The notes beneath the pieces were generated by a model that worked only from the letters and a program-made list of their open reading frames with translations, ran no database searches and was not told the origin of the DNA. From IMG/VR virus record IMGVR_UViG_3300030098_005088, positions 1 to 53,806 of that record: 53,806 nt of DNA. One strand, written 5' to 3'. This document shows positions 1 to 49,664 of this stretch, piece after piece. Both the position numbers and the translations under genes were made by a program. Numbering within the stretch: the first letter of the stretch is position 1; each line of letters begins with the position of its first letter. This DNA comes from a virus. Taxonomy: Duplodnaviria; Caudoviricetes.

Positions 1-95
1 TAACATGTAAAGCTCTATCATTGTTTGGTTGTGTTTCAATAAGTTGTCCATTATCTGTTAATATATTAACATGTATAGCACATACTTCATCATTA
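1..95. repeat. Terminal direct repeat / assembly overlap, left copy
   Basis: Identical to 53712-53806 except position 19 C versus 53730 T; an ORF reads in frame across the joined ends. Confidence 0.95.
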
Positions 96-271
96 TCAAT
101 GTACAGACCTTTAAATAGTACTTTAACTCTATCTCCTGGTTTTACACCATCAGGTAATAACTCTTCATCTTTACTACCTGGTTCAAATTTATATGTTACG
201 TGTCCCTTATAGGGAAGTAAGAATACTCCCCCATAAATATTAGCTTCACGTAATCTAATTTTTCTTGCCAT
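1..271 (-). CDS. 2H phosphoesterase-like protein, N-terminal part (154 aa when joined to 53711->53518)
   Basis: ATG at 271 preceded by AGGAGG; manual translation MARKIRLREANIYGGVFLLPYKGHVTYKFEP...DRALHV|TITSGDFP... gives two HVT motifs; missing from the ORF track because it spans the junction. Confidence 0.7.
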   Translation of the reverse strand, partial: MARKIRLREANIYGGVFLLPYKGHVTYKFEPGSKDEELLPDGVKPGDRVKVLFKGLYIDNDEVCAIHVNILTDNGQLIETQPNNDRALHV

Positions 272-446
272 TATATCCTCCTATTAAGATTTTAAGACCT
301 TGAAGAACTGTTATTATATAATCAATACATGCTACTAACCCTTTGTTAGTTGTATCAATTCCTTCAAATAACTTGTCAGCTTCATCGAATTTTTTATCTA
401 AATAACTTTCTATAATGTGCTGAGGTATTCTACCGTTTTTTGACAT
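255..446 (-). CDS. Hypothetical protein (63 aa)
   Basis: AGGAG SD; sits in a tightly packed - strand gene run. Confidence 0.7.
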   Translation of the reverse strand: MSKNGRIPQHIIESYLDKKFDEADKLFEGIDTTNKGLVACIDYIITVLQGLKILIGGYNGKKN

Positions 447-585
447 TAGCCCTCTCCTTTCTGCGTTGTGCTTTTTGTTTACCTATTTCTTTTCTTATAA
501 ACTCTTTTAAAGCACCTTTGCCTTTAATTTCAGGATATTTTTCTTTCCAAGGTTTAATATCAATATATGTGTTATTTATTCTCAT
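430..585 (-). CDS. Small basic hypothetical protein (51 aa, MRINNTYIDIKPWKEKYPEIKG...)
   Basis: Manual translation; AGGAGG SD; fills the gap between neighbours. Confidence 0.6.
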   Translation of the reverse strand: MRINNTYIDIKPWKEKYPEIKGKGALKEFIRKEIGKQKAQRRKERANVKKR

Positions 586-1015
586 CTATATCCTCCTTTA
601 AGCTTTCAAATATAGCTTTTACACCACTCTCAAACTCTTTGGGATCATTTTTACTAATAACACCTGCTACATTAATACCAGCTTTTCTAAATCTGTCAAT
701 TGTATTATTTACCTGATCTTCTACGGTAACATATACAGGAATATTTGCATTCTTAACAGCTTGAGATAGCTCTAAATGTAGTTCATCACATACAGTACAT
801 CTGCATCTAGTAGAATGTATATTTTCTAGTTCGAATCTATGTTCTGCAGGCACTCCTACCCTTTTAAATAGCTTTACTTTATCAATACTAGGGTGAAGTA
901 CTACGTGTTCATTATTCTTCTTTATAGTGGTATAATTACCATCAACTGATATTATAGGATACCAGTTCTTTTTTGAAAACAAATTACTTATACACTTGCT
1001 TACTTTATTAGACAT
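572..1015 (-). CDS. Hypothetical protein with H/CxCxxC putative metal-binding motif
   Basis: GGAGG SD; HSTRCRCTVC. Confidence 0.7.
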   Translation of the reverse strand: MSNKVSKCISNLFSKKNWYPIISVDGNYTTIKKNNEHVVLHPSIDKVKLFKRVGVPAEHRFELENIHSTRCRCTVCDELHLELSQAVKNANIPVYVTVEDQVNNTIDRFRKAGINVAGVISKNDPKEFESGVKAIFESLKEDIDENK

Positions 1016-1059
1016 GTTGTGTCCTCCATTATATTATTAATTTCATTGAACAAAAATTT

Positions 1060-1895
1060 ATGTATACCTGAGACTAGGATATACTCGCTGCTACTTTACT
1101 GATATCTTAAGCTTTAATGCTCATTTTACAGATGTCCTCCACCATTTGCATGATAGAACAACAGCATACACAGTAGTTTATAGAGATACCGCTCTTTCTT
1201 AGATACAAACTATTCCAAGGTTAATCACAGTTATATAGGTTGTACGGCCCATAAAATTGCTTTCATCCCTGAACTATCAAAAGACTCGCGGTCTTTATCA
1301 AGCCTCTCATTATTGCAAGAGGGTTAGTGTATTTTGCTTTGTATCGCAGACCGATTTCTGCAATGTATGGATGTGGCCCCATACGGCCTATCTTCGTTAT
1401 CATTTTATGTATTAGATTTCTCTAACGGTTATTGTTAATAACTGGTTATTTTGATAAAGGCACGGTCAATAGCTCCATAGCTCTTTCGAGTCACAGAATA
1501 CTAATCCCTCATCTATGTCCTGTAGTCACAACACTACACTTCACTCTCAATAAGTATCCATTGGTCTCAGTCTCCTGTTAACCATCACTTATCTTCATGT
1601 TAAGAGTCCCTGGCCTCCTTTGTGTAGTTGGCCTGTTATCTCCTATTAAGGGATCTACCGATTTCACCTATTGGATGTCTCCATCCTCAACGTAGCTACC
1701 ACACTACATATACCTATCTTCATTGACCTCAGGCGCTAACCCACTGGACAGATCATAAGCATGTTGACGGCTTGCTTCTCTGGACTCATTACTGAGCGCA
1801 ATACTAGGACCGTTATAACCCTGCATTACTTTTAATGTATTACTACATCTATCCTTGTGTTTAATATGCGATGTGAAGCCACCACATAATTCTTA
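1060..1895 (-). ncRNA. Candidate large structured ncRNA (GOLLD/ROOL-like, ~800-850 nt; ends approximate)
   Basis: About 0.9 kb with no ORF of 60 aa or more, visibly GC-richer than flanks; - strand GNRA-capped hairpins at 1785-1796, 1673-1686, 1481-1490, 1412-1425 plus several other stems. Confidence 0.6.
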
Positions 1896-2046
1896 CTAAA
1901 AGGTTGGTGTTTTTTTGGAGAAAACATTTATCCCAAAAACTCTGATATATATCATGGAGGTTGCATAAGGATGCTCCTTTCAAGTTAGTTAATAGTTATT
2001 ATTATTTATCATCTAACTGTCTATCAACTATATATATCAAACGTAT

Positions 2047-2075
2047 GGGGTACATTACTATTAATAACATACCCC
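2047..2075 (-). other. Stem-loop GGGGUAUGUUA/UAAUGUACCCC
   Basis: 11-bp stem whose two G-U pairs form only on the - strand; downstream of the 2118-2369 gene. Confidence 0.5.
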
Positions 2076-2117
2076 TCTATGAATCAGTAAGCAGCGTCAT
2101 AGAAAATATATGTGAGC

Positions 2118-2369
2118 TTAACCTACAGCTCGTGGATACCATATTGCTAGTATCAAAAGATAATACATGACTGCTGCTATACCTGTAGTAATTAATATGT
2201 GATATAGTACTCTATCCCATTTAATACCATTAAGTACACGCCAAGCACCTGTCTTATATCTACTACTTAATACTAAGCAGAATAAGCCAAATGTTCCTAA
2301 TATACTAATACTATTAACCCACTGGAATAACATCACAATTACCATCATTATTAAAGATATTCTTACCAT
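2118..2369 (-). CDS. Small membrane protein
   Basis: AGGAG SD; 2-3 hydrophobic segments. Confidence 0.65.
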   Translation of the reverse strand: MVRISLIMMVIVMLFQWVNSISILGTFGLFCLVLSSRYKTGAWRVLNGIKWDRVLYHILITTGIAAVMYYLLILAIWYPRAVG

Positions 2370-2485
2370 TCAGTTCTCCTTATGAGTTTGGTATAAGTTT
2401 ATATCTATATCTTAGCCACTTTCGGCTGATTAAGCTTGAAGTAACTATTAAAAGAGTACTATACAAGCTACTCTTTATATTCGAC

Positions 2486-2893
2486 CTAAGGTGTACCTCC
2501 TTTGTTCTCCAAAGCAGTTAATCTTTGCTCGAGTTTACTTACAAAGTTATGGGTTTTACTCATACCCGTTTTAATATCACTATACTGCCTATCCATTACC
2601 TTAGCTAATTTAGCTATTGGATCACCATTAGGTGGATTACCACCACCATTACCACCACCATCTAGATTTCTAATCTTAGTTAGATTATCTATCTTTTCTT
2701 CTAGACTAGCGATAGCTCCAGTCTTACCTAATGCAGATAGTATAGTTGTGAAGTCAGACATTTCTCCACCTGCAGCTGCTGCTACTGCCACACTACCTAA
2801 TGATTCTAAGTTATGCTTACTAAGCTTAACATCAGACTCACCCATCCTTCTTAGTGCTTGCTGAGCACTATTATTTTCACGCCAACCTGCCAT
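2486..2893 (-). CDS. Hypothetical protein, first gene of the leftward (early) arm
   Basis: AAGGAG SD; 135 aa, helical/coiled-coil with a Gly-rich linker. Confidence 0.75.
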   Translation of the reverse strand: MAGWRENNSAQQALRRMGESDVKLSKHNLESLGSVAVAAAAGGEMSDFTTILSALGKTGAIASLEEKIDNLTKIRNLDGGGNGGGNPPNGDPIAKLAKVMDRQYSDIKTGMSKTHNFVSKLEQRLTALENKGGTP

Positions 2894-2988
2894 AATTGGA
2901 CTCCTTATATTAATATATTCTAGGTTAATTATTTAACGAGACTAACCATAAACCTCAAAAGGAAAAACTCAAATCATTTATAACGTAA

Positions 2989-3019
2989 TTCCGATAAGGA
3001 AAATCCCCCAGTAAGGGGG
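2989..3019. promoter_or_regulatory. Tandem hairpins at the strand switch (candidate pac site, genome end or early promoter)
   Basis: TTCC-GATAA-GGAA then CCCCC-AGTAA-GGGGG in the divergent intergenic region upstream of terS; function inferred. Confidence 0.35.
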
Positions 3020-3069
3020 TACACAGATATAAAAGACCGCATATCAAAATGCTACAATTTTTAAAACCT

Positions 3070-3098
3070 TTGGTATTTCTAGTAAGTTTTATTATATT
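3070..3098 (+). promoter_or_regulatory. Sigma70-like promoter
   Basis: TTGGTA-N17-TATATT upstream of the 3123 ORF. Confidence 0.55.
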
Positions 3099-3122
3099 TA
3101 AGTTAAAAATCAAGGGAGAAAG

Positions 3123-3377
3123 ATGAAGCAAAAAAGAAAGAAGCTTACTTATAAACAAATGGTAGCTATTATGCAAGATCAGAGGATGAGGATAGAGCAA
3201 ATGTACTCAATTATAGACTCTGTGAACTCAGTAATAAATACTTATATAGATTACAAGAAAGATGGTGATAAATTCATGGAGTATTTAAAAAAGAGAAAAG
3301 AAGCTCTTGATAAATCTAGGAATGAGACACCTGATAAAAAAACTGTACTAAAAAAAGAGTCTACCGAGGAGAAATAA
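3123..3377 (+). CDS. Hypothetical protein
   Basis: GGGAG SD; first gene of the rightward arm. Confidence 0.75.
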   Translation: MKQKRKKLTYKQMVAIMQDQRMRIEQMYSIIDSVNSVINTYIDYKKDGDKFMEYLKKRKEALDKSRNETPDKKTVLKKESTEEK

Positions 3378-3381
3378 ATCC

Positions 3382-3410
3382 TTGTTTCACAATTTTATTA
3401 GTAGTAATAT
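3382..3410 (+). promoter_or_regulatory. Sigma70-like promoter
   Basis: TTGTTT-N17-TAATAT. Confidence 0.45.
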
Positions 3411-3412
3411 AG

Positions 3413-3610
3413 ATGGATAACTATCGCATGAAAAAGAAAATATATAACTTGAGGATAGTAGTTGATAGAAATGGAGAGGTTGAGGAAATATATGAGACCT
3501 TAGACTATGATAGAACTGCTTTGCTCATAAGAGGAGTAGATATGAGTGAGTTTTTAGATGATGAAGCAAATGAGCTCATTCAGGGATGCAATGAGGTAGG
3601 ATTATCATAA
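3413..3610 (+). CDS. Hypothetical protein
   Basis: ORF track; start may be the downstream ATG (MKKKIYNL). Confidence 0.65.
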   Translation: MDNYRMKKKIYNLRIVVDRNGEVEEIYETLDYDRTALLIRGVDMSEFLDDEANELIQGCNEVGLS

Positions 3611-3675
3611 ATCAACAAGTTGATTTGTCTTGCCCTTACGGGCGCATTTAACAATAATAGTAAAAAGGGAGAATT

Positions 3676-3849
3676 ATGGACGCTTGGAAGAATTCAAGAG
3701 ATATCACTATGGTTAAGGATCAGGTTGCACAGGTAAAAGCATACCTACAGACCTTAGAACGTAGGATTTTAGACCTAAATAGTAGGTTACAACCTTTAGA
3801 GAAAAAGGAGTCTGTTAAGCAGAAAAAAAGCTCTAAAGATAAAAAATAA
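3676..3849 (+). CDS. Small coiled-coil protein (57 aa, MDAWKNSRDITMVKD...)
   Basis: Manual translation; GGGAG SD; TAATG overlap with the next gene. Confidence 0.65.
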   Translation: MDAWKNSRDITMVKDQVAQVKAYLQTLERRILDLNSRLQPLEKKESVKQKKSSKDKK

Positions 3850-4580
3850 TGAAATACTTTAAAGTTAATGGTATAGAGCATAAAGTCTTTGAAAAAGACG
3901 ACCCTATACCTGGCTACATTGGCAATATTGTGGACTGGAGGGATGGTCACGTAGGTGACTGGGTTAAAGCCGATGACGGTTGCGTGATACAGGTGTTAAG
4001 ACGTGGAGTTATGCACGCTCGGAAAGGTAAAAAAGCGAAGAAAGAGTACATTGGGACTTGCACAGGGACTTTCCCCGTAAGTAAAAATGTAAAGATGGAC
4101 ACTAATCGTAGGTTAAATATATATTCGTTTAGTGGAAGTAAGAAATCCCATGATATTCTTATAAATAGAACAGACCTAAACAAGAGGGAAGAACTCTTCG
4201 TCTTAAACCTCGCGCAAGGAATGCCATTAGATAAGGCTTATACTAGAGCATTTCCTACTAATAATAAAAGGTATGCATTAGAAAAAGCACAAGATTTAGT
4301 AAAAACAGAGAGAGTAAAAACAGCTATGAAAGAAGAATTAAAACCAGTATTAAAAGCATTAGGCATTAATGAGACAAGTGTCATAAAAAACATTAATACT
4401 ATTGCAATGTCTGCTGAAAAGGATGAAACAAAGCTAAAAGCTTTATTTAAACTTGCAGATATTATGGATTTAGAAGATAAGAATAAAACTACAGTTACTC
4501 AGGTGACTGGTATGCAATTTAAAGGTTTTTTAGATGAAGATGTTGAAAAAGCAGAAAGACCTAAGGAACTAGAGGAATAA
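3849..4580 (+). CDS. terS: Probable terminase small subunit with N-terminal extension
   Basis: HTH-like segment REELFVLNLAQGMPLDKAYTRAF...AQDLVKTERVK, C-terminal KLKALFKLADIM; position upstream of terL. Confidence 0.65.
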   Translation: MKYFKVNGIEHKVFEKDDPIPGYIGNIVDWRDGHVGDWVKADDGCVIQVLRRGVMHARKGKKAKKEYIGTCTGTFPVSKNVKMDTNRRLNIYSFSGSKKSHDILINRTDLNKREELFVLNLAQGMPLDKAYTRAFPTNNKRYALEKAQDLVKTERVKTAMKEELKPVLKALGINETSVIKNINTIAMSAEKDETKLKALFKLADIMDLEDKNKTTVTQVTGMQFKGFLDEDVEKAERPKELEE

Positions 4581-6821: not shown

Positions 6822-7770
6822 AGAAAAGAATTATATAAGCCCCGAAGAAAGGACTTATTTTGATGGCGCCGTAGCAGATTTTATAGGAAGGCAAATAGGT
6901 GCTATGAGCATGTGGGACGAAAGTTCTGAGGATAGCTCATATGGGACTGTTGGTAGAGCTATAAAAAGACAGCTAGCTCTTGGCGTAGATAAAGCTGATT
7001 TAGATAAAGTAAATAGAATGGATGTTAATATTATTCTTTTTGGAGAAGAACAATTAGTTAGAGAATTATTTGGAATGGCATCATTTGATGATGAAAGAAA
7101 TCCTAATAGAGACCAGGCTGTTTTTTCTAAAAATAATTTAACAGGCAATATGGTTTTATCAGGCAGTAAACTGGGACAATCTTATCAAAAAGAATTAAAT
7201 CAAAGATTCACAGCTCAACTTTTAGCTGAATATTTCAATGAGGCACCCGATGAACCAAATTGGGGGGATCCAATAAAAGAATATCACATGCCAGGAGAAG
7301 ATTCTGATTATTGGAATGAAGTTATTCAATCTCAAGTTCATTTTGATGGGATAGAAGCTAGATCTAGATATGCTATACATCCAGATACTGGAGAGAAGTC
7401 TTTTATATTTAGAGATCCTTTATTAGAGGTTATTCATGTAGATAAAGATGGGAACTTTTTTGATTATTGGAACGTAGGTTTAGATAAAGAAGAAAATGTC
7501 TTGTTTTTTCCAGATGAGATTAATAAATTAGGGCTAAAGGGTAACGTAAGATTAAGCAATGTTAAGAGAGCTATGGCTGCTCCCTTCACAAAACCACCTA
7601 GGATTTATGGTAATTTATCCATAGATGCAGATATGGTTAATAGGAAATACAATACTTTATCTCAAAGCCAAATGTATATTTTAGAGCAAAGATTTGGATA
7701 TGTTCCAGATGCTTCTCAAATAGCAGAAGAAATATTAAGCTATCATAAACATAGATTAGAAGGAGAATAA
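6814..7770 (+). CDS. Hypothetical protein (318 aa)
   Basis: Long ORF overlapping the terL stop; no recognisable motif. Confidence 0.75.
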   Translation: MDEEKNYISPEERTYFDGAVADFIGRQIGAMSMWDESSEDSSYGTVGRAIKRQLALGVDKADLDKVNRMDVNIILFGEEQLVRELFGMASFDDERNPNRDQAVFSKNNLTGNMVLSGSKLGQSYQKELNQRFTAQLLAEYFNEAPDEPNWGDPIKEYHMPGEDSDYWNEVIQSQVHFDGIEARSRYAIHPDTGEKSFIFRDPLLEVIHVDKDGNFFDYWNVGLDKEENVLFFPDEINKLGLKGNVRLSNVKRAMAAPFTKPPRIYGNLSIDADMVNRKYNTLSQSQMYILEQRFGYVPDASQIAEEILSYHKHRLEGE

Positions 7771-30361: not shown

Positions 30362-33300
30362 ATGAACTACGAAGAAGAGAATAGTCAATATGATTATTTA
30401 GCGAATCAACCATCTTATTTAGACCAACTTTCAGGGAATCAAGCTGGTGGAAGTTTAGAAGCATTAAAGCCTATTCAATATGATTCTATGCAGCAATGGA
30501 GAGTTTTTGACCCTCAAGGGTATCAGAGTGCGATAAGCCAACTTCAAGAAGAACAGGAACAATCTCAAGATCCTAATTATTTTTTAACAGACGATAAATA
30601 TATACCTGGAGTTTCAGACCTAACTACATTTGTAGGTAGTGCTTTATGGGGTGCTACTGAAGCTGTAAGCATGGGAGCTTTAACAGCACTAAATCAATCT
30701 TACAGAGGTGAAATAGGCAAGTCTTTTGGCTATGAGGCTTGGGAAAATGCAGCTGTATCAGGTAAAGCTGGATATTTAGCTGGAAGTATCCCTGCAAGTC
30801 TTTATACTTTAGGTTTAACAGGAAAAGGTTTAAGAGCTGCATCTGGGGCATTAGGAATTGGTCAAAAAACTTTAGCTAAATTTGGCGCAAAGCAAGTTGC
30901 AAAAGGAACTGATGATATACTATCTCAGGTAACTAAAGCAAGTGGAATGTCTGATGATGTTGCTACAGATGTATTTCAATTAGCTAATAAATCAATAAAA
31001 GAAGGAACAGACGAAGCTCTTGCTGCAGCTGAAACTTGGAAAACATCTAGTAGAATTAAAAAGAATCCTTTCGGAGATAGTGACTTACGGTTAGATATAC
31101 AAAATAGAACTAGGATTGCTATAAAAAGCAAGCTAGATGATATGGTAAAAGCTGGAGATGACGGAGCAGAATGGGCTGCAAAGGTGGGTGCAAATCCAAA
31201 TGCAATAGATAATATAGTTAATGAATCACTTAAACAAGCTCAGCAATATGGACATTTAGGAGCTGGGAACTTTTCAAGAGCTTTAGCTATTAAATTAGGA
31301 GATGGTAAGGCGGCTTCATATGTTGGAGATGCTGTTTATGAATCTATTCTACTAGCTACTCATTCAGCAGCTCATACAATTATAGGGAATTATAGTGCAG
31401 ATGCATTAGATTTATCTGAAGAAGAGTATCAGAGAAGAAGTTGGATGAAAGATGCCTTATTTAGTGCTGTTACTGGATGGTTCTTCCCTGCTGTTAGGAG
31501 GATAGGTGGAGGTAAAGATGTTCAAATAGCATGGGATGGTATGATACCTAGAGCCCAATCGGGATCTTTAAAAGATTTTCAGACAATGACTAAAGCTTTA
31601 TGGCAGAAACTTAACTCTCAACCAAAAGTTACATGGGATAACGCTGCTAAAACATTTGGAAAGGATAGTCAATTTACTCCTAAACAGGTTCAGACTATGC
31701 TAAGGAATATATATAATGCTAGTGGCAAAAGTGATGATGTTTTTAGAAATGCTGGTCCAGGTTTCAATATTTCCTTTTTAACCGATAGTAATGCTTTAAA
31801 TCATGCTAGTTCATTAAAAGCGTTGTATAATGCTTATAATTCAGTTACTAAAGATGCATTAAAGATAGCTGTCCCTATGATGAAAGAAATTGGAAAAGAT
31901 TTAACTCAATCAATGTTTAGAATGGTCCCTGGCACAGTAGTTATGAATGCTCATACATGGCATGAAACTGATTGGGATCACTATCCTGCAGACAAGATGG
32001 TAGTAGATGTTGTTACTGGTATGTTATTTATGAAAAGAAAACATAGAGCTCCAGGGGAAAAGTTGAAAGACTTTTATGGCTCAGGAGAATATACTGGTGC
32101 TGAACTTGCAAAATATGCTAAAACACTAGATATATTAAACTATGATAAAAAAACCTTAGATTATTACGCAGGAGTGTATAGCACTTTAGATGTAAATGAG
32201 CAACTGGCTAAGCAATTAGTAGGCAGAGCTAATAAATCTACTCAAGATAGAAGAGATTTAAGTGCTATGGTTGAAAAAGATAAGCTTAATAACATTAAAC
32301 TTGAAGAAGATATAACAACAAGAACTGCTAGAGGAGAAGATGTTAGAAGCTTTGAAGAGCATGGAGCATTAAATTATACTAAGAAAATACAAGAAGCTAA
32401 AAGATTAAGAGATCAAGGAAGAGATGCCGAAGCTAAGGCTATTGAACAGCAAGCAACTAAAGAATTAGCTGAATGGGATATAGCTAGAAAATTAGTAGCT
32501 TCTCTTGAATTAGGAGTAAGCAAAGAGTCAATCAGGCATATGACAGAGACTGAAGCTATAGACTTTATAAAAAAACTAAATTCTATTAAATGGAAAGGTA
32601 AAGAAGTTACTCATGAAAATGTAGATGATTTCTTAAGAGAAAGCAGAATAGCTGCAGTTAATGAAGTTACTGCTGATATACAAGGCTTAATGGAAGGTTA
32701 TATTAAAAATTCATTAAACGCTTTAGGTATGTGGAATGATGCTATGGTTCAAAAAGGGGGCCGTATTAACGTACATAAAGATGTTCTTGATGTTTTAGAT
32801 ATAGTTAATAAAGATATTAATCATGCAAAATCAGCAGAAGTACTAAAAGCAGTTCTTCATATGGCTGACAAGCTGAATATTATTAGGCTTGGAGAAGAGG
32901 GAATTAAATTTGAATCTTCAAGGAGAGAAAATCCTGTAGGTAAAGAAACTTTAGATTTACTTACTCAAGAATATAAAGCAGCTACTGACTTAATGCATGA
33001 TAAAGTGTTTAATGATGGCATGAGCAATTGGAGAAATGTAGTTCCAGGTAAAACTAAGGAAGGATTCTTAGATGTTAATATTCTAGCAGCAACTCCTATA
33101 TGGGATGCTATGCATACAAATATGCTTCATATGAGAAATGCTGTAGGATATGATTTAGTGACTGGCAGAAATCTAACTGGGATGAAGGATAACAGACTAG
33201 GAGAACTTCATGATAAAATAGACAGAGAACTGTATGAAGGGAATGCTAATGTAGCAATAAAAGATGTTCCTTCATCAAAAGATGTCCCTCATGTCCAAGA

Positions 33301-36300
33301 AGTTTTAGATTTTATAAATCATTACAATCAAGCAAGAAAGCTTACAGGAAGAGAAACAGGAACCAAAGAAATAGAATTTACGCAAGCAGAAAAATTCTTC
33401 CAAGAAGTAAAAGCTGAGACAGGTAGTATTTTCACGAATAAAGACCATTTTGCAGCCTTTAAAGACTATATGTACCAAGAGTACTTAACAGAAGTTACTG
33501 GAAGTGATTCTATTGGTAGAAGTTTGAGAAGAGCTGTGAATATGATTTTAGATAGAGATAATCCAATGGCTTTAAGGAATGATCAAAATGGAACTACTAC
33601 TATGCCTTCTTCTAAAGCATTAGAACAAGTGTTATTAGGAAATGTAAGTGAACAAGTAAGGCTTAGTGCTGCTCAAACTAAAGAAATTAGAGATTTAATA
33701 GAAATCTATAGACAGAATATTGAAAATACCCTAAAAGACAAAGGTAATATAATTAAGTTTTCAGATGATTTAATTTTGTCTGAAGCTTCTATATATACTA
33801 GAAAAGATTGGCAAAGACAGCTAACTAATATGGTAACCCAAATAGAAGGTGATAAGCTTTTTAGAATGGGTCATTTAATGAAGAATCTAGATATATTAAA
33901 AGGTTTAGTTGAGAATCCAATGTGGTCAGAAGTTGCTCATTACAAATCATTAAATGATATAGCAGCTAATAAGAAAGAAATAGAAGTTTTACAAAGAGAG
34001 TTTGCAGATTTAAGAATGAACACATTAAAGTTAGTAGAACTTATTTCTAATGCAGCTCAATATGGGGATGTTACTTTATTAAGAACAGCTTTAGACCAGC
34101 AGTTTAATTTAGAAAGAGCATTGGTTGAAGTGAATGAATTTACTGCCAATAAAAAAGCTTATGGCAGAGATACTACATTAGGCAGTCTAGCATCTCAGAT
34201 TGACGTAATGATAAAAGATATTATAAATAAAAGAAATGATAAACTAGGAATTGATAGCTATAATGATGTTCAGAAATTCATAGAAAGCCAGTCTGAGATA
34301 AATAGATATTCTGATAGTGCTGGTAGAATAGTAACTGAAAGACAAACAGTATCTGAGAATGTTTATTTAGATAGATACCAAGTAGGTGATAGAATGATGG
34401 ACATGCTTCGTGGTAATCTTAAATCTACATATGATAACTTTGATGGAGTTTCTGCAGCTGTTAAAGCTGTATTAAACAATCCTGCTATAAAAAATCAACC
34501 TTCACATATTAGAGAAGCTATACTTGAAAACTTAGATAAAATAGGATTAAATGAGCAGTCTTATATAACTCAAATTGTAGAGCCTCAATTAGCTCATCAT
34601 TGGAACGTAATTAAGAATACTAAGAAAGTTAAAGATGCTAACTTAACATATTCTCAATTTATCACTGATACATTTCAGTTGCTAACATCTAGTGGTGGTT
34701 CAAGTAGGATTCAAATAGCTACATATAAAGGTGGAGGTAAGTTAGATTTATCTACAGCTACTGTATCTAATTGGAATAAAGGATTCAATGCTCTTATTGA
34801 TGTATTTGGGTTTGATGCTTCGCCAGGTAGCTTTTTATTAGTTTCTCAAACACATGCAGCTCAAGGAAGATTAACTTCTAAATTAGATATGGCTACTATA
34901 GCTCAAATTAGAGCTGATTTGGGAGCGGGAATAGTCCCTAAGTTTAAAATGAGCGAACTATTAACTGCTGCAGAACAAAATGAACTTGCTAAGTTAATAT
35001 CTGGCAATGTCGTTGTTGGATCAGGTAGAAGAGGTGCTCCTCAGTATGGATTCTTTTCATTGGATTCTAAGACTATGGTTATGATTAATCATAATAAATA
35101 TAAAAGCATTATAGACCAATTTAGAAATCAAAACTCTGATGCTTACAATAGGTTTAAAGATGTATTGGGTCCTGAGACAGTAGAAGCATTCATAAGAGAT
35201 CATTTGAAGATAGATAAGGTTAATTTAACTAATCCTAACGAATCAGTAAATTCAGAGGTTATTGAAACTGTATTACGTGCAACAAGGCTTGCATTTGATA
35301 GACCTGACGTCTTAAGACAGTGGGCTAATGGAACTTTAGACCCTAATGATTTACCTAAAGTATTTAAATACTACAGCCTTTCTAGCCCTAAGAGTGGATT
35401 AGCATTAAATCAAAGAGTTTTAAAGCTAACAGATGCTTTTGTAGATAGAATGTTTGTAAATGACCCAGAATTAGTTCATATACGAGAGAAATACATGCAG
35501 CATAGGGTAGATGCACCTAAGCATAGAAAGTTCATAATATTTGATGAAAAAGACCCTAGCGGCAAAACTGGATTCTTTGATGCTTATACAAGGCATAGAG
35601 ATAGATTGGAAAGACAGCTTATTGAAGAATTTGGAATGTCTCCAGAAGTTGCTAAAGAAACAGCAACTAGGCTTGCAGAAAAAACTAAAGCTGAAAGCAA
35701 AAGTACTGTAGATGGTGAAGTATTTTTAAGCTTACCAGAAATGATATCAATGTTAGTGCCTAAAGGAGCTGACAAGAGTTGGTTCGTATGGGATAAAGGT
35801 GAAATAGTAGGATTTAATGTAGCTATTAAACCAGTAGTATCACATTCTGAAGTTAGCAAAAATGGTGCTATGACTGTAGTTATGGATAAAACAGCCTTTA
35901 AATTTGACCCAGTAATGGATAAAGCTATGAGAAACGCAGATGGTAAATATTGGACTGATTCAATAGCATTCAGGTCTGCTGTTAAAGTTGGTAAAAAATC
36001 TAATGGATGGGGACTTGAACCTACTGATATAGGAGTTGGAATTAAATTAGATACTCCTCTAGAGAAAGAATTAGGTGGAAGATTTAGTGATTGGAAAGAA
36101 GTTGTTGCAAAAGGGCTTGGAGCTTCTCCAAAAGGATTGATTAATCCTGGGATGGTAGAAGTAGATAGAGCTAACATATTGTTAAAATCTATCAGTGGCA
36201 AACATAAAGGATCAGTAAGTGTTGCTTATGGTAACTTTTTATCTAATGATGCTCAAAAAGTATTAGACAACTGGCTTGGAAGTACTGCTAATATATTTGA

Positions 36301-39300
36301 TTTAACTAGAAAGCTTTCTGTTATGAAAGATAATCCTTATGCATTACTACAAGTAGGTAGAGAAATGAGTAGAAATGAACTTCAGTCTGGAGATAGAAGT
36401 AGTAGACTTTCAGGTTTAGAGTTTATATTATCTGAAGGAGGATTACCTACATATGAATTCATGAGACCTCAAATAGAAAAATCATTAACATCATACTATA
36501 TGAATACTCAGAACTTTGTTAACGGTGAGATTAAGTTTGGAGGATATAATGTTATGACTGCAGGGTCAGGACTCTCTGATCCTATTAGGCATGCGGGGAT
36601 ACAAACTTCTTTTGGAGGCTCTGCTGTCCCTCATTTTACTGGGGAACAAGTAATAGGTCATATGTTAAGTTCGACTCATGCTGACGGAATTCCTTTAGTT
36701 ATGAAACTATCTAGTGCTAAGGCAAAAGAATTAAATAGAGTTTTAATAGATAAAATCAAAAAAACTGGTTTAAAGCTTGAAGTTGAAGATGCTAACTTTT
36801 TCGCTAAAGGTGAAGAGTATCTAGGCCTTCATTCTTTATCTGGAGATATGGTTACTGGTCCTATAATAGGTAAAATTAATAGAATTATATTAGATGGTAA
36901 CAGAACTACTAATAGGGAGATAGACCAAACATTTAGAAATAAAATAAATACAGCTGTAAGAGAAACTTTAATAGATGTTATAGCTAAAGATTATAGAGGA
37001 ATATTGAAGAATGCTTCAATTGAAATAGATAAAAGTAATATATCTTATAGTGATTTCGTTAAATACTTAGATAGAGGGTTTGATAAAAATCTAATTGAAA
37101 CCTCTGATCAATTAAACAGAGAATACAGAGTAAAGACAGGAAAGAATGCTAATTCAGGATATGCTGCCACTAAAACAGGATATGATGGTATCTTTGCGTC
37201 AGCTATAGACTTAAGAACTCCTAAAGATGGTATTAATAGCTGGGTAATTAGTAAAGTAGAAAAGATATTAGATAAAAGAAGAGGAGCTGTAAGTGAGATT
37301 AATCAAGCTGATGCGATAAATCCTCAAGATGCTGATTTCGATTTAGATAAAAGTGCTCAATTTACAACATCTCCATCTAAAGTAGTAGAAGAAATATATG
37401 GAGGTGCAGGTTATCACCAAAAGTCAAGTATAGAAATATTAAAGAAAGCTGGAATGGAACTTAAGATTGAAGGCCCAACATACGAGGTATATGTAAATGA
37501 AATGCTAGCACAATTAGACTCTCAAAGAGCTCCATTGGTTAGACAGCATTCAATAGCATCTTTTATTATGCAATACTTTTCTTCTGTTAATGAAGCGAGA
37601 ATGTACAATATATTAAAACCTGGATATAGAACGGGTGTTGACTTTACAGACGGGATAAGTAGAGTATCTAATAGCATACATGATACAGCAGTTATTTCAG
37701 AGTTTAAAGGATCTAATGACCAGTTATATAAAGTTTCCTTTAGAGAAGCTGGAGAATTTGTAGACTCTGTTCAGTTTATGAAAAGCATGATTAAAGAGAT
37801 GATTGATGTACATGGCTCACCTAAAGATTTAGGAGGTGTTAATACAAGAGATTTCTTTTGGTTTTCTAATAAAGTAGGCTTATTTAAAATACAGAAAAAA
37901 GACTTTAAATCAGGTAAATATGAAGAGATTAATTGGAATGATATGAGTGCTGATGTTAGAGCTGTTCAAAAAGGTTTATCAAAGCATGTAGTCAAACCTT
38001 TGAATGATATATTTAATTTAAAAAATGGAGTTGAGACCCTAAGCGACGGGTCAAGTAGAAAGCTTACTGTATATGATTATGTTAGTATTTTTAATAATGC
38101 TAAATGGGAGATGTCTAGATTAAAACCTTTTAAGGTATGGGACCCTACTCAGAAAAAAATGGTTTCTGTAACTCCTTATATGGACAGAAATAAAAGGCCT
38201 ATGTTAGAATCTTTTGCTAATGATATGCTTGCATTTTTAGGAGATGGTTGGTCTCAACGTAATGGAACAGCAAATCATCCTCTTATAAAAGGTTTAAATG
38301 AATTAAGCAAAGCTTTAGATAAGCAATTTACAGGAAGAGATATACAGAGAAATGACCTTCTTGCTAATTTAATAGAAGGTAAGATGCATCCTACCGATGA
38401 AGTAGTAAGCAAAGCATTAAAAGAATATGTTAGAGATGAACAAAGATGGGTAGAGCTATCTAGTGTAAGATGGGAAATAAATAGACTTTCAGATATATTA
38501 AATGATATGCAGGTTTTTAGACAAGATAAAACCAATGAATACGCTAAAAAACAGGCTAGACTAGAAAGACTTAGTAAAATTATGGATGCTGCAGAAACAG
38601 AATTTAATAACACATATATAGGCAAGGCAATTCCTAAAACAAAACGTGGAGGTTATTCAGCAACAGAAGTAACTAGAGTCTATAAGTTAAATGCTAATAA
38701 AGAAGTTATTGACTTTACAGATTATAGACCAGGAGAATTCATTAAGTTTAATAGAGGTGATGTTGTTATTGAAAATCCTAGAAGATATGTTATATCTGAC
38801 AATTTAGATCAAGACCATAGAAGAGCTATGTATAGAGCGTTTGGTAATAGGAATAAAGGAGTTTCAGAGTTTGATGCTTTCCATAAAAATGGTTATATTA
38901 GAGAGCTTAAAAGAGACCTATTTAGCAAAATTGGCGATTTAAATAAAAATAGCTCCGATCAAACTATTAGAGACAGTCAGTTTTATTCTGATATATCTGA
39001 GATGGAATTAAGTATCATGAGAGATGTTTATAATAAAGCTAAAATGAGAGGAGATGCATATGCTACTCAGTTCTTATGGAGCTTATTAACTCCTAAAGTA
39101 AATCAAAATGTAGTATCTATTATGAATTATGATGCTCATGCAAACTCTTATTTCAATTCTTTTTATTTCAACTCTAATAAAAGGTCTGAGAAATTAGTTG
39201 TTAGCTTTTTAAGTAGGGCTATGGAAGGTAAGGTTCCTGAGATATCTTCAAATGATGCGAGGAGTATCTTAAAAAACATAGATAAGAGAAAAAACTTAGC

Positions 39301-39736
39301 ATTAGTTAAAGAATGGGGTAAAACATTAGATGGCGAAGCATTTAGAATGGTGGACAGAGATATAGAAAGAAACATAACTGATTTTAGAGTGCTCCCAGAA
39401 AGAAGTGATTCTCCTCACTGGAATAGAGTTGATGTTAAAAATGAAAGTGCTAGAAGAATAATGCAATCATATATGACAGGTTCTTATAGATTAGACCCTA
39501 TTGAACTATATAGACTTACTGCAGCATTAGATAAAACTAATAACAGTATGATAGATGTAAATAGAATGAGTGAATTAGTTAAAGGTTATTGGACTGATAT
39601 AAGTGATATTGACTTAGGTAGAGGTTCATTTAGATATTCCAGAAGGTCTATGAGAGAAAAAATGGAATTAAACAGAGAATATACTAAAAAAAGAGACGCA
39701 TTAGAGGCTATTGAAGAGTCGGCTTGCGGATTATAA
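30362..39736 (+). CDS. Giant virion protein with putative two-barrel (crAss-like) DNA-dependent RNA polymerase
   Basis: DADFDLDK catalytic-loop-like motif (37328-37351), upstream LRTPKDGINS, VDGEVFL, MDKTAF and FRSAVKVG in the order I recall for crAss-type virion RNAPs. Confidence 0.78.
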   Translation: MNYEEENSQYDYLANQPSYLDQLSGNQAGGSLEALKPIQYDSMQQWRVFDPQGYQSAISQLQEEQEQSQDPNYFLTDDKYIPGVSDLTTFVGSALWGATEAVSMGALTALNQSYRGEIGKSFGYEAWENAAVSGKAGYLAGSIPASLYTLGLTGKGLRAASGALGIGQKTLAKFGAKQVAKGTDDILSQVTKASGMSDDVATDVFQLANKSIKEGTDEALAAAETWKTSSRIKKNPFGDSDLRLDIQNRTRIAIKSKLDDMVKAGDDGAEWAAKVGANPNAIDNIVNESLKQAQQYGHLGAGNFSRALAIKLGDGKAASYVGDAVYESILLATHSAAHTIIGNYSADALDLSEEEYQRRSWMKDALFSAVTGWFFPAVRRIGGGKDVQIAWDGMIPRAQSGSLKDFQTMTKALWQKLNSQPKVTWDNAAKTFGKDSQFTPKQVQTMLRNIYNASGKSDDVFRNAGPGFNISFLTDSNALNHASSLKALYNAYNSVTKDALKIAVPMMKEIGKDLTQSMFRMVPGTVVMNAHTWHETDWDHYPADKMVVDVVTGMLFMKRKHRAPGEKLKDFYGSGEYTGAELAKYAKTLDILNYDKKTLDYYAGVYSTLDVNEQLAKQLVGRANKSTQDRRDLSAMVEKDKLNNIKLEEDITTRTARGEDVRSFEEHGALNYTKKIQEAKRLRDQGRDAEAKAIEQQATKELAEWDIARKLVASLELGVSKESIRHMTETEAIDFIKKLNSIKWKGKEVTHENVDDFLRESRIAAVNEVTADIQGLMEGYIKNSLNALGMWNDAMVQKGGRINVHKDVLDVLDIVNKDINHAKSAEVLKAVLHMADKLNIIRLGEEGIKFESSRRENPVGKETLDLLTQEYKAATDLMHDKVFNDGMSNWRNVVPGKTKEGFLDVNILAATPIWDAMHTNMLHMRNAVGYDLVTGRNLTGMKDNRLGELHDKIDRELYEGNANVAIKDVPSSKDVPHVQEVLDFINHYNQARKLTGRETGTKEIEFTQAEKFFQEVKAETGSIFTNKDHFAAFKDYMYQEYLTEVTGSDSIGRSLRRAVNMILDRDNPMALRNDQNGTTTMPSSKALEQVLLGNVSEQVRLSAAQTKEIRDLIEIYRQNIENTLKDKGNIIKFSDDLILSEASIYTRKDWQRQLTNMVTQIEGDKLFRMGHLMKNLDILKGLVENPMWSEVAHYKSLNDIAANKKEIEVLQREFADLRMNTLKLVELISNAAQYGDVTLLRTALDQQFNLERALVEVNEFTANKKAYGRDTTLGSLASQIDVMIKDIINKRNDKLGIDSYNDVQKFIESQSEINRYSDSAGRIVTERQTVSENVYLDRYQVGDRMMDMLRGNLKSTYDNFDGVSAAVKAVLNNPAIKNQPSHIREAILENLDKIGLNEQSYITQIVEPQLAHHWNVIKNTKKVKDANLTYSQFITDTFQLLTSSGGSSRIQIATYKGGGKLDLSTATVSNWNKGFNALIDVFGFDASPGSFLLVSQTHAAQGRLTSKLDMATIAQIRADLGAGIVPKFKMSELLTAAEQNELAKLISGNVVVGSGRRGAPQYGFFSLDSKTMVMINHNKYKSIIDQFRNQNSDAYNRFKDVLGPETVEAFIRDHLKIDKVNLTNPNESVNSEVIETVLRATRLAFDRPDVLRQWANGTLDPNDLPKVFKYYSLSSPKSGLALNQRVLKLTDAFVDRMFVNDPELVHIREKYMQHRVDAPKHRKFIIFDEKDPSGKTGFFDAYTRHRDRLERQLIEEFGMSPEVAKETATRLAEKTKAESKSTVDGEVFLSLPEMISMLVPKGADKSWFVWDKGEIVGFNVAIKPVVSHSEVSKNGAMTVVMDKTAFKFDPVMDKAMRNADGKYWTDSIAFRSAVKVGKKSNGWGLEPTDIGVGIKLDTPLEKELGGRFSDWKEVVAKGLGASPKGLINPGMVEVDRANILLKSISGKHKGSVSVAYGNFLSNDAQKVLDNWLGSTANIFDLTRKLSVMKDNPYALLQVGREMSRNELQSGDRSSRLSGLEFILSEGGLPTYEFMRPQIEKSLTSYYMNTQNFVNGEIKFGGYNVMTAGSGLSDPIRHAGIQTSFGGSAVPHFTGEQVIGHMLSSTHADGIPLVMKLSSAKAKELNRVLIDKIKKTGLKLEVEDANFFAKGEEYLGLHSLSGDMVTGPIIGKINRIILDGNRTTNREIDQTFRNKINTAVRETLIDVIAKDYRGILKNASIEIDKSNISYSDFVKYLDRGFDKNLIETSDQLNREYRVKTGKNANSGYAATKTGYDGIFASAIDLRTPKDGINSWVISKVEKILDKRRGAVSEINQADAINPQDADFDLDKSAQFTTSPSKVVEEIYGGAGYHQKSSIEILKKAGMELKIEGPTYEVYVNEMLAQLDSQRAPLVRQHSIASFIMQYFSSVNEARMYNILKPGYRTGVDFTDGISRVSNSIHDTAVISEFKGSNDQLYKVSFREAGEFVDSVQFMKSMIKEMIDVHGSPKDLGGVNTRDFFWFSNKVGLFKIQKKDFKSGKYEEINWNDMSADVRAVQKGLSKHVVKPLNDIFNLKNGVETLSDGSSRKLTVYDYVSIFNNAKWEMSRLKPFKVWDPTQKKMVSVTPYMDRNKRPMLESFANDMLAFLGDGWSQRNGTANHPLIKGLNELSKALDKQFTGRDIQRNDLLANLIEGKMHPTDEVVSKALKEYVRDEQRWVELSSVRWEINRLSDILNDMQVFRQDKTNEYAKKQARLERLSKIMDAAETEFNNTYIGKAIPKTKRGGYSATEVTRVYKLNANKEVIDFTDYRPGEFIKFNRGDVVIENPRRYVISDNLDQDHRRAMYRAFGNRNKGVSEFDAFHKNGYIRELKRDLFSKIGDLNKNSSDQTIRDSQFYSDISEMELSIMRDVYNKAKMRGDAYATQFLWSLLTPKVNQNVVSIMNYDAHANSYFNSFYFNSNKRSEKLVVSFLSRAMEGKVPEISSNDARSILKNIDKRKNLALVKEWGKTLDGEAFRMVDRDIERNITDFRVLPERSDSPHWNRVDVKNESARRIMQSYMTGSYRLDPIELYRLTAALDKTNNSMIDVNRMSELVKGYWTDISDIDLGRGSFRYSRRSMREKMELNREYTKKRDALEAIEESACGL

Positions 39737-49045: not shown

Positions 49046-49054
49046 ATTTCTCTC

Positions 49055-49267
49055 CTATTCTTTTCTATATTTCATTTCTCTTCTTAGTAAAGCTTTATTA
49101 CTTTGCTTTTTAATTTCATGATATTTCTTTTGAATATCCATAAAAGTATCTAAGTCTTTCATCTTCATTTGACAATCCATCACTTCTAAGAACTCCCATA
49201 ATTCATCAATATATTCTACCAATGTTGCAGTAGTTCTGCTTTGTAGTATTGTTTCATCTAAGTACAT
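49055..49267 (-). CDS. Hypothetical protein
   Basis: AGGAG SD. Confidence 0.65.
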   Translation of the reverse strand: MYLDETILQSRTTATLVEYIDELWEFLEVMDCQMKMKDLDTFMDIQKKYHEIKKQSNKALLRREMKYRKE

Positions 49268-49294
49268 TTTTTCTCCTAATTAAATTATAAGTTA

Positions 49295-49390
49295 TTAGAG
49301 AGAATGCCTGCGTTTTGCGTATGCAGTATTGATATAATCTCATGCTTCATCGACTTATTGAGTGTCTTCTCGGGACTTACATCTCTCTAA
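49295..49390 (-). ncRNA. Candidate structured element A (closed four-way junction)
   Basis: TTAGAGAGA/TCTCTCTAA closing stem with three short internal stems; strand tentative. Confidence 0.35.
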
Positions 49391-49397
49391 ATTATTA

Positions 49398-49552
49398 ATA
49401 GTTGATATGCTACGGAGGACGCCGCCGAGGTAGCACTCGACCTGGACCTTTAGTTACCAGGGACATGGGGTGGAGGCGTCACGGTATCGCTGCTGTTTAC
49501 GGGGTAAACTCCCTGTCTGCACGATTCGTTTGCTTGTCCTATATCAAACTAT
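49398..49552. ncRNA. Candidate structured element B (GC-rich, potential double pseudoknot)
   Basis: Closing stem, GACGCC/GGCGTC, CCTGG/CCAGG, CGAG/CTCG, GTTTAC/GTAAAC and crossing TGCTAC/GTAGCA pairing. Confidence 0.5.
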
Positions 49553-49561
49553 TTCAAATTT

Positions 49562-49649
49562 AGGGGTAGCGTTTAGGATTCTAGTAGCTGATTCTATTGG
49601 TATTGTTTGACACATCATCAGTTGCTAGCATTGGATCGATACTACCCCT
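49562..49649. ncRNA. Candidate structured element C (long interrupted hairpin)
   Basis: AGGGGTAG/CTACCCCT and CTAGTAGCTGAT/ATCAGTTGCTAG stems. Confidence 0.4.
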
Positions 49650-49664
49650 CTCCTCCGCACAAAA

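Follow-up and report, generated by a model that had tools for sequence, protein, structure and literature searches.

What does the longest stretch without open reading frames encode in the genome of an uncultured marine phage? The DNA analyzed here (the window) is a virus record of 53,806 nucleotides (nt) that is rated complete, carries a 95-nt direct repeat at each end, and encodes a large terminase, a portal protein, a head protein, and a primase-helicase. Its terminase has no close cultured relative, the best match among GenBank phages being 26% identical; relatives of the terminase are found in more than 600 IMG/VR stretches, the best 80 of which show 76 to 81% identity. The longest part of the window without an open reading frame (ORF) of at least 60 amino acids (aa) on either strand spans positions 1016 to 1960 and measures 945 nt, against 397 nt for the runner-up. 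This bears out the preliminary description, made from the sequence, which had singled out this locus as the largest noncoding stretch and had proposed a large structured RNA there. The largest ORF inside 1065 to 1891 has at most 52 aa. At an ORF limit of 75 aa, the second largest stretch of the window is 49046 to 49664 (619 nt; 397 nt at the 60-aa limit), which gave no Rfam match at gathering scores. Elsewhere, positions 30362 to 39736 of the plus strand hold a single ORF of 3124 aa, which is followed by one of 995 aa.

The region is, with high confidence, a minus-strand GOLLD RNA gene that is divergent and apparently functional, a reading that, together with the analogy to GOLLD cages, offers the best explanation of the locus. 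The region is homologous to GOLLD, its structure is conserved, and it is present in RNA libraries. In the complete phage genome, the gene is located in the leftward arm, about 1 kb inside it.

Scanned over its full length with Rfam at the default gathering scores, the window gave no match. A scan with an E-value threshold revealed a match to GOLLD (RF02032) at 1065 to 1513, on the minus strand only, with 84.9 bits and an E value of 3.9e-22, extending over model positions 1 to 416 of 416. The curated gathering cutoff for GOLLD is 150 bits, which is a choice of curation and not a biological feature, and the default scan misses the GOLLD of the window because 84.9 bits lies below it. Between 900 and 2500, at E values up to 10, the scan gave three matches, namely, GOLLD and two short ones at chance level (E of about 9), and none to ROOL or to group I or group II introns. 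The preliminary description had suggested such a scan and had likened the 3' part to a GOLLD-type 3' end; the 449 nt that align over the whole of RF02032 bear out that comparison. The matched segment corresponds to the 3' domain.

The search for GOLLD covered 75 of the best 80 records with a large terminase 76 to 81% identical to that of the window and found it in 5, of which 3 score above the Rfam cutoff. An alignment upstream of the 3' domain showed blocks common to the window and its relatives, and a gapped motif built from these shared 5'-domain blocks matched 11 viral contigs, all 11 of which carry the GOLLD 3' domain. There are 12 GOLLD relatives in all, 5 of them linked to the phage family of the window by the terminase and 7 added by the motif search alone. 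With the Rfam model the relatives score 119 to 176 bits, apart from one copy that is truncated by the end of its contig and scores 87.8 bits, and six of the 12 fall below the cutoff (142.7, 137, 147.8, 126.4, 119.1, and, for the truncated copy, 87.8 bits). The window has the lowest score among the 12 full-length copies. It is also the most divergent copy, as blastn against the 12 relatives gave a single match of 59 nt. No match was obtained by blastn of window positions 1000 to 2000 against GenBank phages, nor by searching the viral contigs with a degenerate pattern taken from the 3' core of the window.

The 5' domain was examined with three covariance models (R1, R2, and R3), which were built from five relatives of one subgroup with the window excluded, were divided into pieces due to size limits, and give rough E values, as their calibration was shortened. 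R1, the middle piece, matches 1655 to 1779 of the minus strand over its full length (38.7 bits; E, 6.4e-7), and R2, the first piece, matches 1780 to 1891 of the same strand, also over its full length (37.2 bits; E, 1.2e-5). The two matches abut in the window, where R1, searched to an E value of 1, has no other match below 0.8 and R2, searched to 0.01, has no other match. R3, the last third, gave no match in the window or in four relatives from another subgroup; at E values up to 1, it gave eight matches among the loci of the 12 relatives, with L085 recovered only at 0.062. The corresponding segment of the window, 1514 to 1654, is lineage specific in sequence. Its minimum free energy (MFE) fold has three hairpins, arranged in the order seen in the relatives, and its predicted architecture may thus resemble theirs, a resemblance read from the MFE prediction. 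The parts of the RNA, all on the minus strand, are as follows.

1065 to 1891, minus strand: whole GOLLD RNA gene, about 827 nt (Rfam match and two model matches; RNA-library contigs lie within 1067 to 1878; 5' end placed by homology).
1780 to 1891, minus strand: first part of the 5' domain (model R2, with 22 of 26 model pairs standard in the window; covariation), comprising a hairpin at 1884 to 1869, GUAA hairpins at 1848 to 1835 and 1797 to 1784, and a variable stem at about 1834 to 1799.
1655 to 1779, minus strand: middle multibranch part of the 5' domain (model R1, with 22 of 28 model pairs standard in the window and 4 others gaps; covariation), comprising a closing helix (1771 to 1768 with 1660 to 1657), a long arm (1762 to 1756 with 1716 to 1710) that carries a lineage-specific insert, a hairpin at 1709 to 1690, and a GAGA hairpin at 1686 to 1673.
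1514 to 1654, minus strand: last third of the 5' domain (lineage-specific sequence; three hairpins predicted by MFE).
1453 to 1513, minus strand: first hairpin of the conserved 3' domain, with a GAAA tip (Rfam positions 1 to 63; 20 of 23 consensus pairs standard by hand count).
1347 to 1452, minus strand: variable single-stranded linker (unpaired Rfam positions 64 to 131 and a 32-nt insertion in the window).
1065 to 1346, minus strand: core of the 3' domain (aligned to Rfam positions 132 to 416; consensus fold of 12 sequences), comprising a long-range helix (1346 to 1337 with 1210 to 1201), internal hairpins, and a GCAA-capped hairpin.
About 1068 to 1080, minus strand: terminal 3-bp hairpin with a conserved UCUCA loop.

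This is the two-domain plan of the family, with a variable 5' domain (about 1514 to 1891), a variable linker, and a conserved 3' domain (1065 to 1513). The limits proposed previously, 1060 to 1895, agree with these within a few bases, and the four GNRA hairpins listed there are all present on the minus strand at the coordinates given. Two of them, CUCA-GUAA-UGAG (1785 to 1796) and GGAUG-GAGA-CAUCC (1673 to 1686), correspond to helices of the 5' domain that are conserved and covary; CUC-GAAA-GAG (1481 to 1490) caps the first hairpin in the Rfam model, and UUAGA-GAAA-UCUAA (1412 to 1425) lies in the variable linker. Among the further stems named, AAAGAC-CGCGA-GUCUUU (1280 to 1296) matches a consensus GOLLD hairpin and UGUAGU/ACUACA forms the final hairpin predicted for the 5' domain, while UGCAGA/UCUGCG does not correspond to a consensus GOLLD helix. 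Besides the hairpin at 1412 to 1425, the linker contains a local GGCC...GGCC hairpin around 1375 to 1388, and in the MAFFT alignment this region shows extra sequence specific to the window where the relatives show gaps.

A hand count on the Rfam alignment found 76 of the 98 GOLLD consensus pairs standard in the window, 14 noncanonical, and 8 deleted. The deleted pairs comprise three at the tip of one hairpin and five that make up one whole hairpin, at about Rfam positions 247 to 262, which is also absent from most relatives. This missing element, the second hairpin of a two-hairpin branch, is probably P21b, judging from the sequence alignment. Conserved loops of the 3' domain (GAAA, GCAA, and UAGUCUCA) stand at aligned places, and several junction bases deviate from the GOLLD consensus. 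With helix names taken from the accessible part of PMC12990946, the hairpin at 1453 to 1513 is probably P13/P14 with its A-rich L14; in the same comparison with the available literature, the A-rich tip, the GNRA loop, and the UCUCA terminal loop are putatively assigned to L14, L24, and L27, respectively. The MFE z-score of the RNA is −2.79. In published GOLLDs, a loop makes a long-range kissing contact with the linker, and self-complementary loops kiss between subunits. In the window, the loop at 1241 to 1246 contains a palindromic GUAC and could pair with 1379 to 1384; such matches are likely to arise by chance, and the loop was dropped as a candidate subunit contact for this reason.

Comparison across homologues, which had also been suggested as a check, revealed compensatory changes across 12 to 13 sequences. 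In the model-based alignment of the middle piece (13 sequences), 97.7% of the cells hold standard pairs, compared with 68.6% in shuffled alignments and 26 to 48% in slid controls; both sides have changed in 20 of 28 pairs, and none of 500 shuffles reaches the observed covariation score. The first piece (13 sequences) is 91.8% paired, compared with 77.1% when shuffled, and shows changes on both sides in 13 of 26 pairs. Both alignments were fitted to the structure of the model and are therefore biased in its favor. For the 3' domain, a plain MAFFT alignment of 12 sequences gave a consensus fold of 73 pairs, 60 of which show compensatory change, and this fold recovers the same helices as the Rfam 3' domain. 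On this alignment the window forms 49 of the 73 pairs and the other sequences form 63 to 71, a low value that is due in part to the misplacement of three window hairpins by MAFFT.

Seven RNA-library rows from four studies hold at least one-fifth of the sampled words of 900 to 2200, and in DNA rows the share reaches the full set; the DNA and RNA runs containing the region carry a marine label. Run X20, at a share of 0.18, was left aside. One RNA run per study was compared with window positions 1 to 4000, and each yielded one contig of 724 to 793 nt on the RNA (1089 to 1817, 1067 to 1856, 1182 to 1878, and 1119 to 1856), although such contigs show neither strand, ends, nor level, and RNA libraries can contain DNA. 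Two of the contigs stop at 1856 and one has adapter letters at 1878, positions that were not taken as the 5' end. The word depths of these contigs are 122.7, 41.8, 45.1, and 11.7, compared with about 2 to 5 for short flank contigs, and the flanks have little or no contig cover. The contrast in depth is a hint at most, as contig depth and missing cover, with no DNA run alongside, cannot rank genes.

The contigs of three of these runs, each from a different study, contain a second natural allele. Across the four runs, 19 substitutions and six indel rows lie inside the RNA, with 13 of the substitutions present in all three allele-bearing runs and 6 in one or two. The substitutions were placed by hand on the Rfam alignment, the pairs of models R1 and R2, and the MFE fold. 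Seven can be placed in helices: five keep the pair (1512, 1495, 1760, 1833, and 1565, the last in a helix predicted by MFE only), and two repair a mismatch (U·U to G-U at 1254 and, in one run only, U·C to U-A at 1176). Another eight substitutions and two indels fall in loops, junctions, or the linker. The remaining cluster, at 1810 to 1826, comprises four substitutions and four indels at the tip of a stem that varies from 0 to about 40 nt among the relatives, and, as the model aligns this hypervariable stem, the substitution at 1811 would break a pair. The overall preservation of pairs speaks for selection acting on the fold within the lineage of the window itself.

Among the terminase-related records that are at least 90% complete, 2 of 12 contain GOLLD. 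All five records with GOLLD have it upstream of the terminase gene and in the opposite orientation, the arrangement also seen in the window, and in the four loci checked, GOLLD starts 0.9 to 1.1 kb from a conserved intergenic block (2963 to 3100 in the window). In this phage family, GOLLD is thus an accessory gene that occupies a fixed slot in the leftward arm. The block itself, which lies between the leftward and rightward arms, is about 100 to 140 nt long and shows 72 to 82% DNA identity in 27 of the loci examined, and the genes to its left have no DNA similarity between loci. An alignment of 16 copies reveals compensatory changes in a pair of neighboring hairpins, as well as an extended −10 motif for the rightward arm that resembles TACAAT and is invariant, and there is a terminator-like hairpin on the minus strand at 3019 to 3005. 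Terminase relatives that are 57 to 65% identical (L105, L106, and L107) lie on contigs binned as Poseidoniales, Dehalococcoidia, and Methanosarcinales, which may be a binning artifact or a hint at hosts; the binning of viral contigs is unreliable, and no host was assigned from these labels.

The genes next to GOLLD differ between loci. The available literature describes tRNA genes as often, and not obligatorily, neighboring GOLLD. The whole window contains no tRNA gene, as the preliminary description had observed for the vicinity of the RNA; this absence is not a defining feature, as a tRNA-Met gene lies directly upstream of GOLLD in 3 of the 12 related loci and the other 9 likewise have no tRNA in the stretches examined. 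In L104, ARAGORN called a further tRNA at 648 to 737 of the minus strand, directly upstream of GOLLD and beside the tRNA-Met, with the anticodon UUA, which reads the stop codon UAA. In L083 and L101, an apparent tRNA 3' end lies just upstream of GOLLD, and no tRNA gene was called there. Just downstream of GOLLD, 4 of the 12 relatives carry a gene whose product has a phosphatase domain of the polynucleotide kinase type (Pfam PF25109; the single protein scanned gave an E value of 5e-40), at the following positions.

L082, 1948 to 2376: phosphatase-domain gene.
L085, 2059 to 2628: phosphatase-domain gene.
L086, 1940 to 2398: phosphatase-domain gene.
L103, 2283 to 2780: phosphatase-domain gene.

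This protein also occurs in three records without GOLLD, and a literature search linking GOLLD RNA with "polynucleotide kinase" found no such paper, its three matches being unrelated plant papers. In the window, none of the three proteins that flank GOLLD matched in PHROGs or Pfam, and the downstream 147-aa protein has no relatives among the viral contigs. This protein was rejected as a remote relative of the phosphatase domain (BLASTP E value of 0.22; hhalign probability of 0.4%). A conserved protein partner beside GOLLD was likewise rejected, since no family of flanking proteins extends to more than 4 of the 13 loci and none includes the window.

The divergence of the window raises the question of whether the locus is a decaying GOLLD relic, no longer working and kept only for want of deletion so far. 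Its 84.9 bits compare with 119 to 176 bits in the relatives, 22 of the 98 consensus pairs are lost or deleted in the hand count, and it agrees with the other sequences at 54 of the 67 columns invariant in the 11 relatives and differs at 13. GOLLD is, in addition, dispensable in the family, being absent from 70 of the 75 records and from 10 of the 12 near-complete ones. The low score and the unformed pairs, along with the blindness of R3 to the last third and the pair broken at 1811, count against a functional GOLLD. However, four of the 13 deviating columns are the halves of two compensatory flips, in which pairs invariant in the 11 relatives are reversed in the window alone (UG to GU and AU to UA; columns 262/329 and 403/422), and L085, which is equally deviant (54 of 65 invariant columns), still scores 142.7 bits. 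All seven placeable substitutions of the second allele preserve or repair pairs, contigs from the RNA libraries of four studies cover the RNA, and the conserved loops are retained, namely, GAAA on the first hairpin, GCAA, and the terminal UCUCA. Decay of the gene is, on this evidence, very unlikely.

The preliminary description had offered two options, a divergent member of GOLLD and a new class. The former stands, as the score lies below the cutoff and a single 59-nt match links the window to its relatives by blastn. A new class sharing only a GOLLD-like 3' module, with an unrelated 5' part and another function, could be argued from the lack of a detectable relative of 1514 to 1654, the enlarged linker, the missing tRNA genes, and the flanking proteins without relatives. 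Yet two-thirds of the 5' domain (1655 to 1891) is homologous, helix by helix, to that of GOLLDs that pass the Rfam cutoff, R3 also fails on four undoubted GOLLDs of another subgroup, and a variable 5' domain and linker are features of the family as stated in the available text of 10.1101/2024.12.08.627333 and PMC12990946. A separate class is thus highly improbable and is not supported; the RNA of the window is a known class in divergent form. It is scarcely conceivable that the region is no RNA gene at all and represents the decayed remnant of a protein gene, an origin of replication, or a long structured leader belonging to the 147-aa gene downstream. There is no convincing promoter directly upstream of 1891 (weak consensus matches lie at 2027 to 1998), and no terminator-like site in the interval from 1065 to the start codon that follows at 1015, which makes read-through into that gene possible. 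Against this, the region holds no ORF above 52 aa, the covariance models match on one strand only, and the compensatory changes are a signature of RNA pairing, not of coding sequence or origin repeats. The downstream genes, moreover, differ among the 13 loci (the largest shared family reaches four loci, that of the window not included), which makes a role as a cis-acting leader for one gene unlikely.

As a divergent GOLLD, the RNA of the window can be compared with members of the class whose assemblies have been described. According to the available text of 10.1101/2024.12.08.627333 and PMC12990946, the env-38 GOLLD, of 833 nt, forms a 14-mer, for which the latter lists the cryo-EM entry 9MEE. 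The accessible part of PMC12990946 also describes the Streptococcus agalactiae GOLLD, of 700 nt, as a 12-mer, its 3' domain alone forming mainly a 10-mer, and reports that differences in peripheral helices such as P21b accompany different subunit numbers. Compared by description, the window resembles env-38 in length (about 827 versus 833 nt), in the two-domain plan, and in its marine viral origin, and relatives of the window have GOLLD directly downstream of tRNA-Met, as is reported for env-38 in the available text of 10.1101/2024.12.08.627333. It differs from env-38 in scoring below the Rfam cutoff, in having no tRNA in the genome, in its enlarged linker, in a last third of the 5' domain that is unrelated in sequence, and in the absence of the hairpin that, by our own mapping, is probably P21b. 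The S. agalactiae GOLLD, in the portion of PMC12990946 at hand, has no P21b either and still forms a cage, so that loss of a peripheral helix appears compatible with a cage and alters the subunit number; it differs from the window in lying on a Gram-positive chromosome or prophage, in being shorter, and in its reduced 5' domain. ROOL, in the available accounts, is likewise a large, ornate, phage-associated RNA that is often near tRNAs and forms an octameric RNA-only cage, but it is unrelated in sequence and fold, consistent with the absence of a ROOL match in 900 to 2500 at E values up to 10.

By analogy with these RNAs, the transcript of the window would fold without protein, and its copies would assemble into a closed dihedral cage of roughly 10 to 14 subunits, in which the 3' domains would form the ring and the 5' domains the caps. 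A homo-oligomeric RNA cage is the most likely product on this comparison, with a subunit number that is not predictable. Such a cage would act in lytic growth, perhaps by enclosing or scaffolding a macromolecule of the host or the phage.

GOLLD is among the largest noncoding RNAs of bacteria and phages, and its protein-free cages were shown recently. The picture of the class is unchanged by the case described here. What the locus offers is the complete genome of a marine phage, along with a family of over 600 related contigs, in which GOLLD is an accessory gene at a fixed slot and carriers can be compared with noncarriers, as well as a pair of natural alleles and the RNA-library contigs of four studies, with which expression and structure are testable in natural populations. 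The Rfam cutoff misses half of this clade, which implies that environmental surveys undercount GOLLD.

In the family, the GOLLD slot lies between tRNA-Met (3 of 12 loci) and the phosphatase-domain gene (4 of 12 loci). An unlikely but conceivable reading of this arrangement is that GOLLD cages are part of a phage module for tRNA protection or RNA repair, of which the window would carry a stripped-down copy, with neither tRNA nor phosphatase, that might act on host tRNAs and have a subunit number other than 12 or 14. One complete relative that is free of GOLLD, L031, has 680 nt between tRNA-Met and the phosphatase-domain gene (6868 to 7547, minus strand), a spacer that contains only a 53-aa ORF and matches no Rfam family and not model R1. 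The spacer occupies the place that GOLLD has in other relatives, and its predicted fold has a z-score of −3.47, which none of 20 shuffles equaled; a different large RNA may thus occupy the GOLLD slot there.
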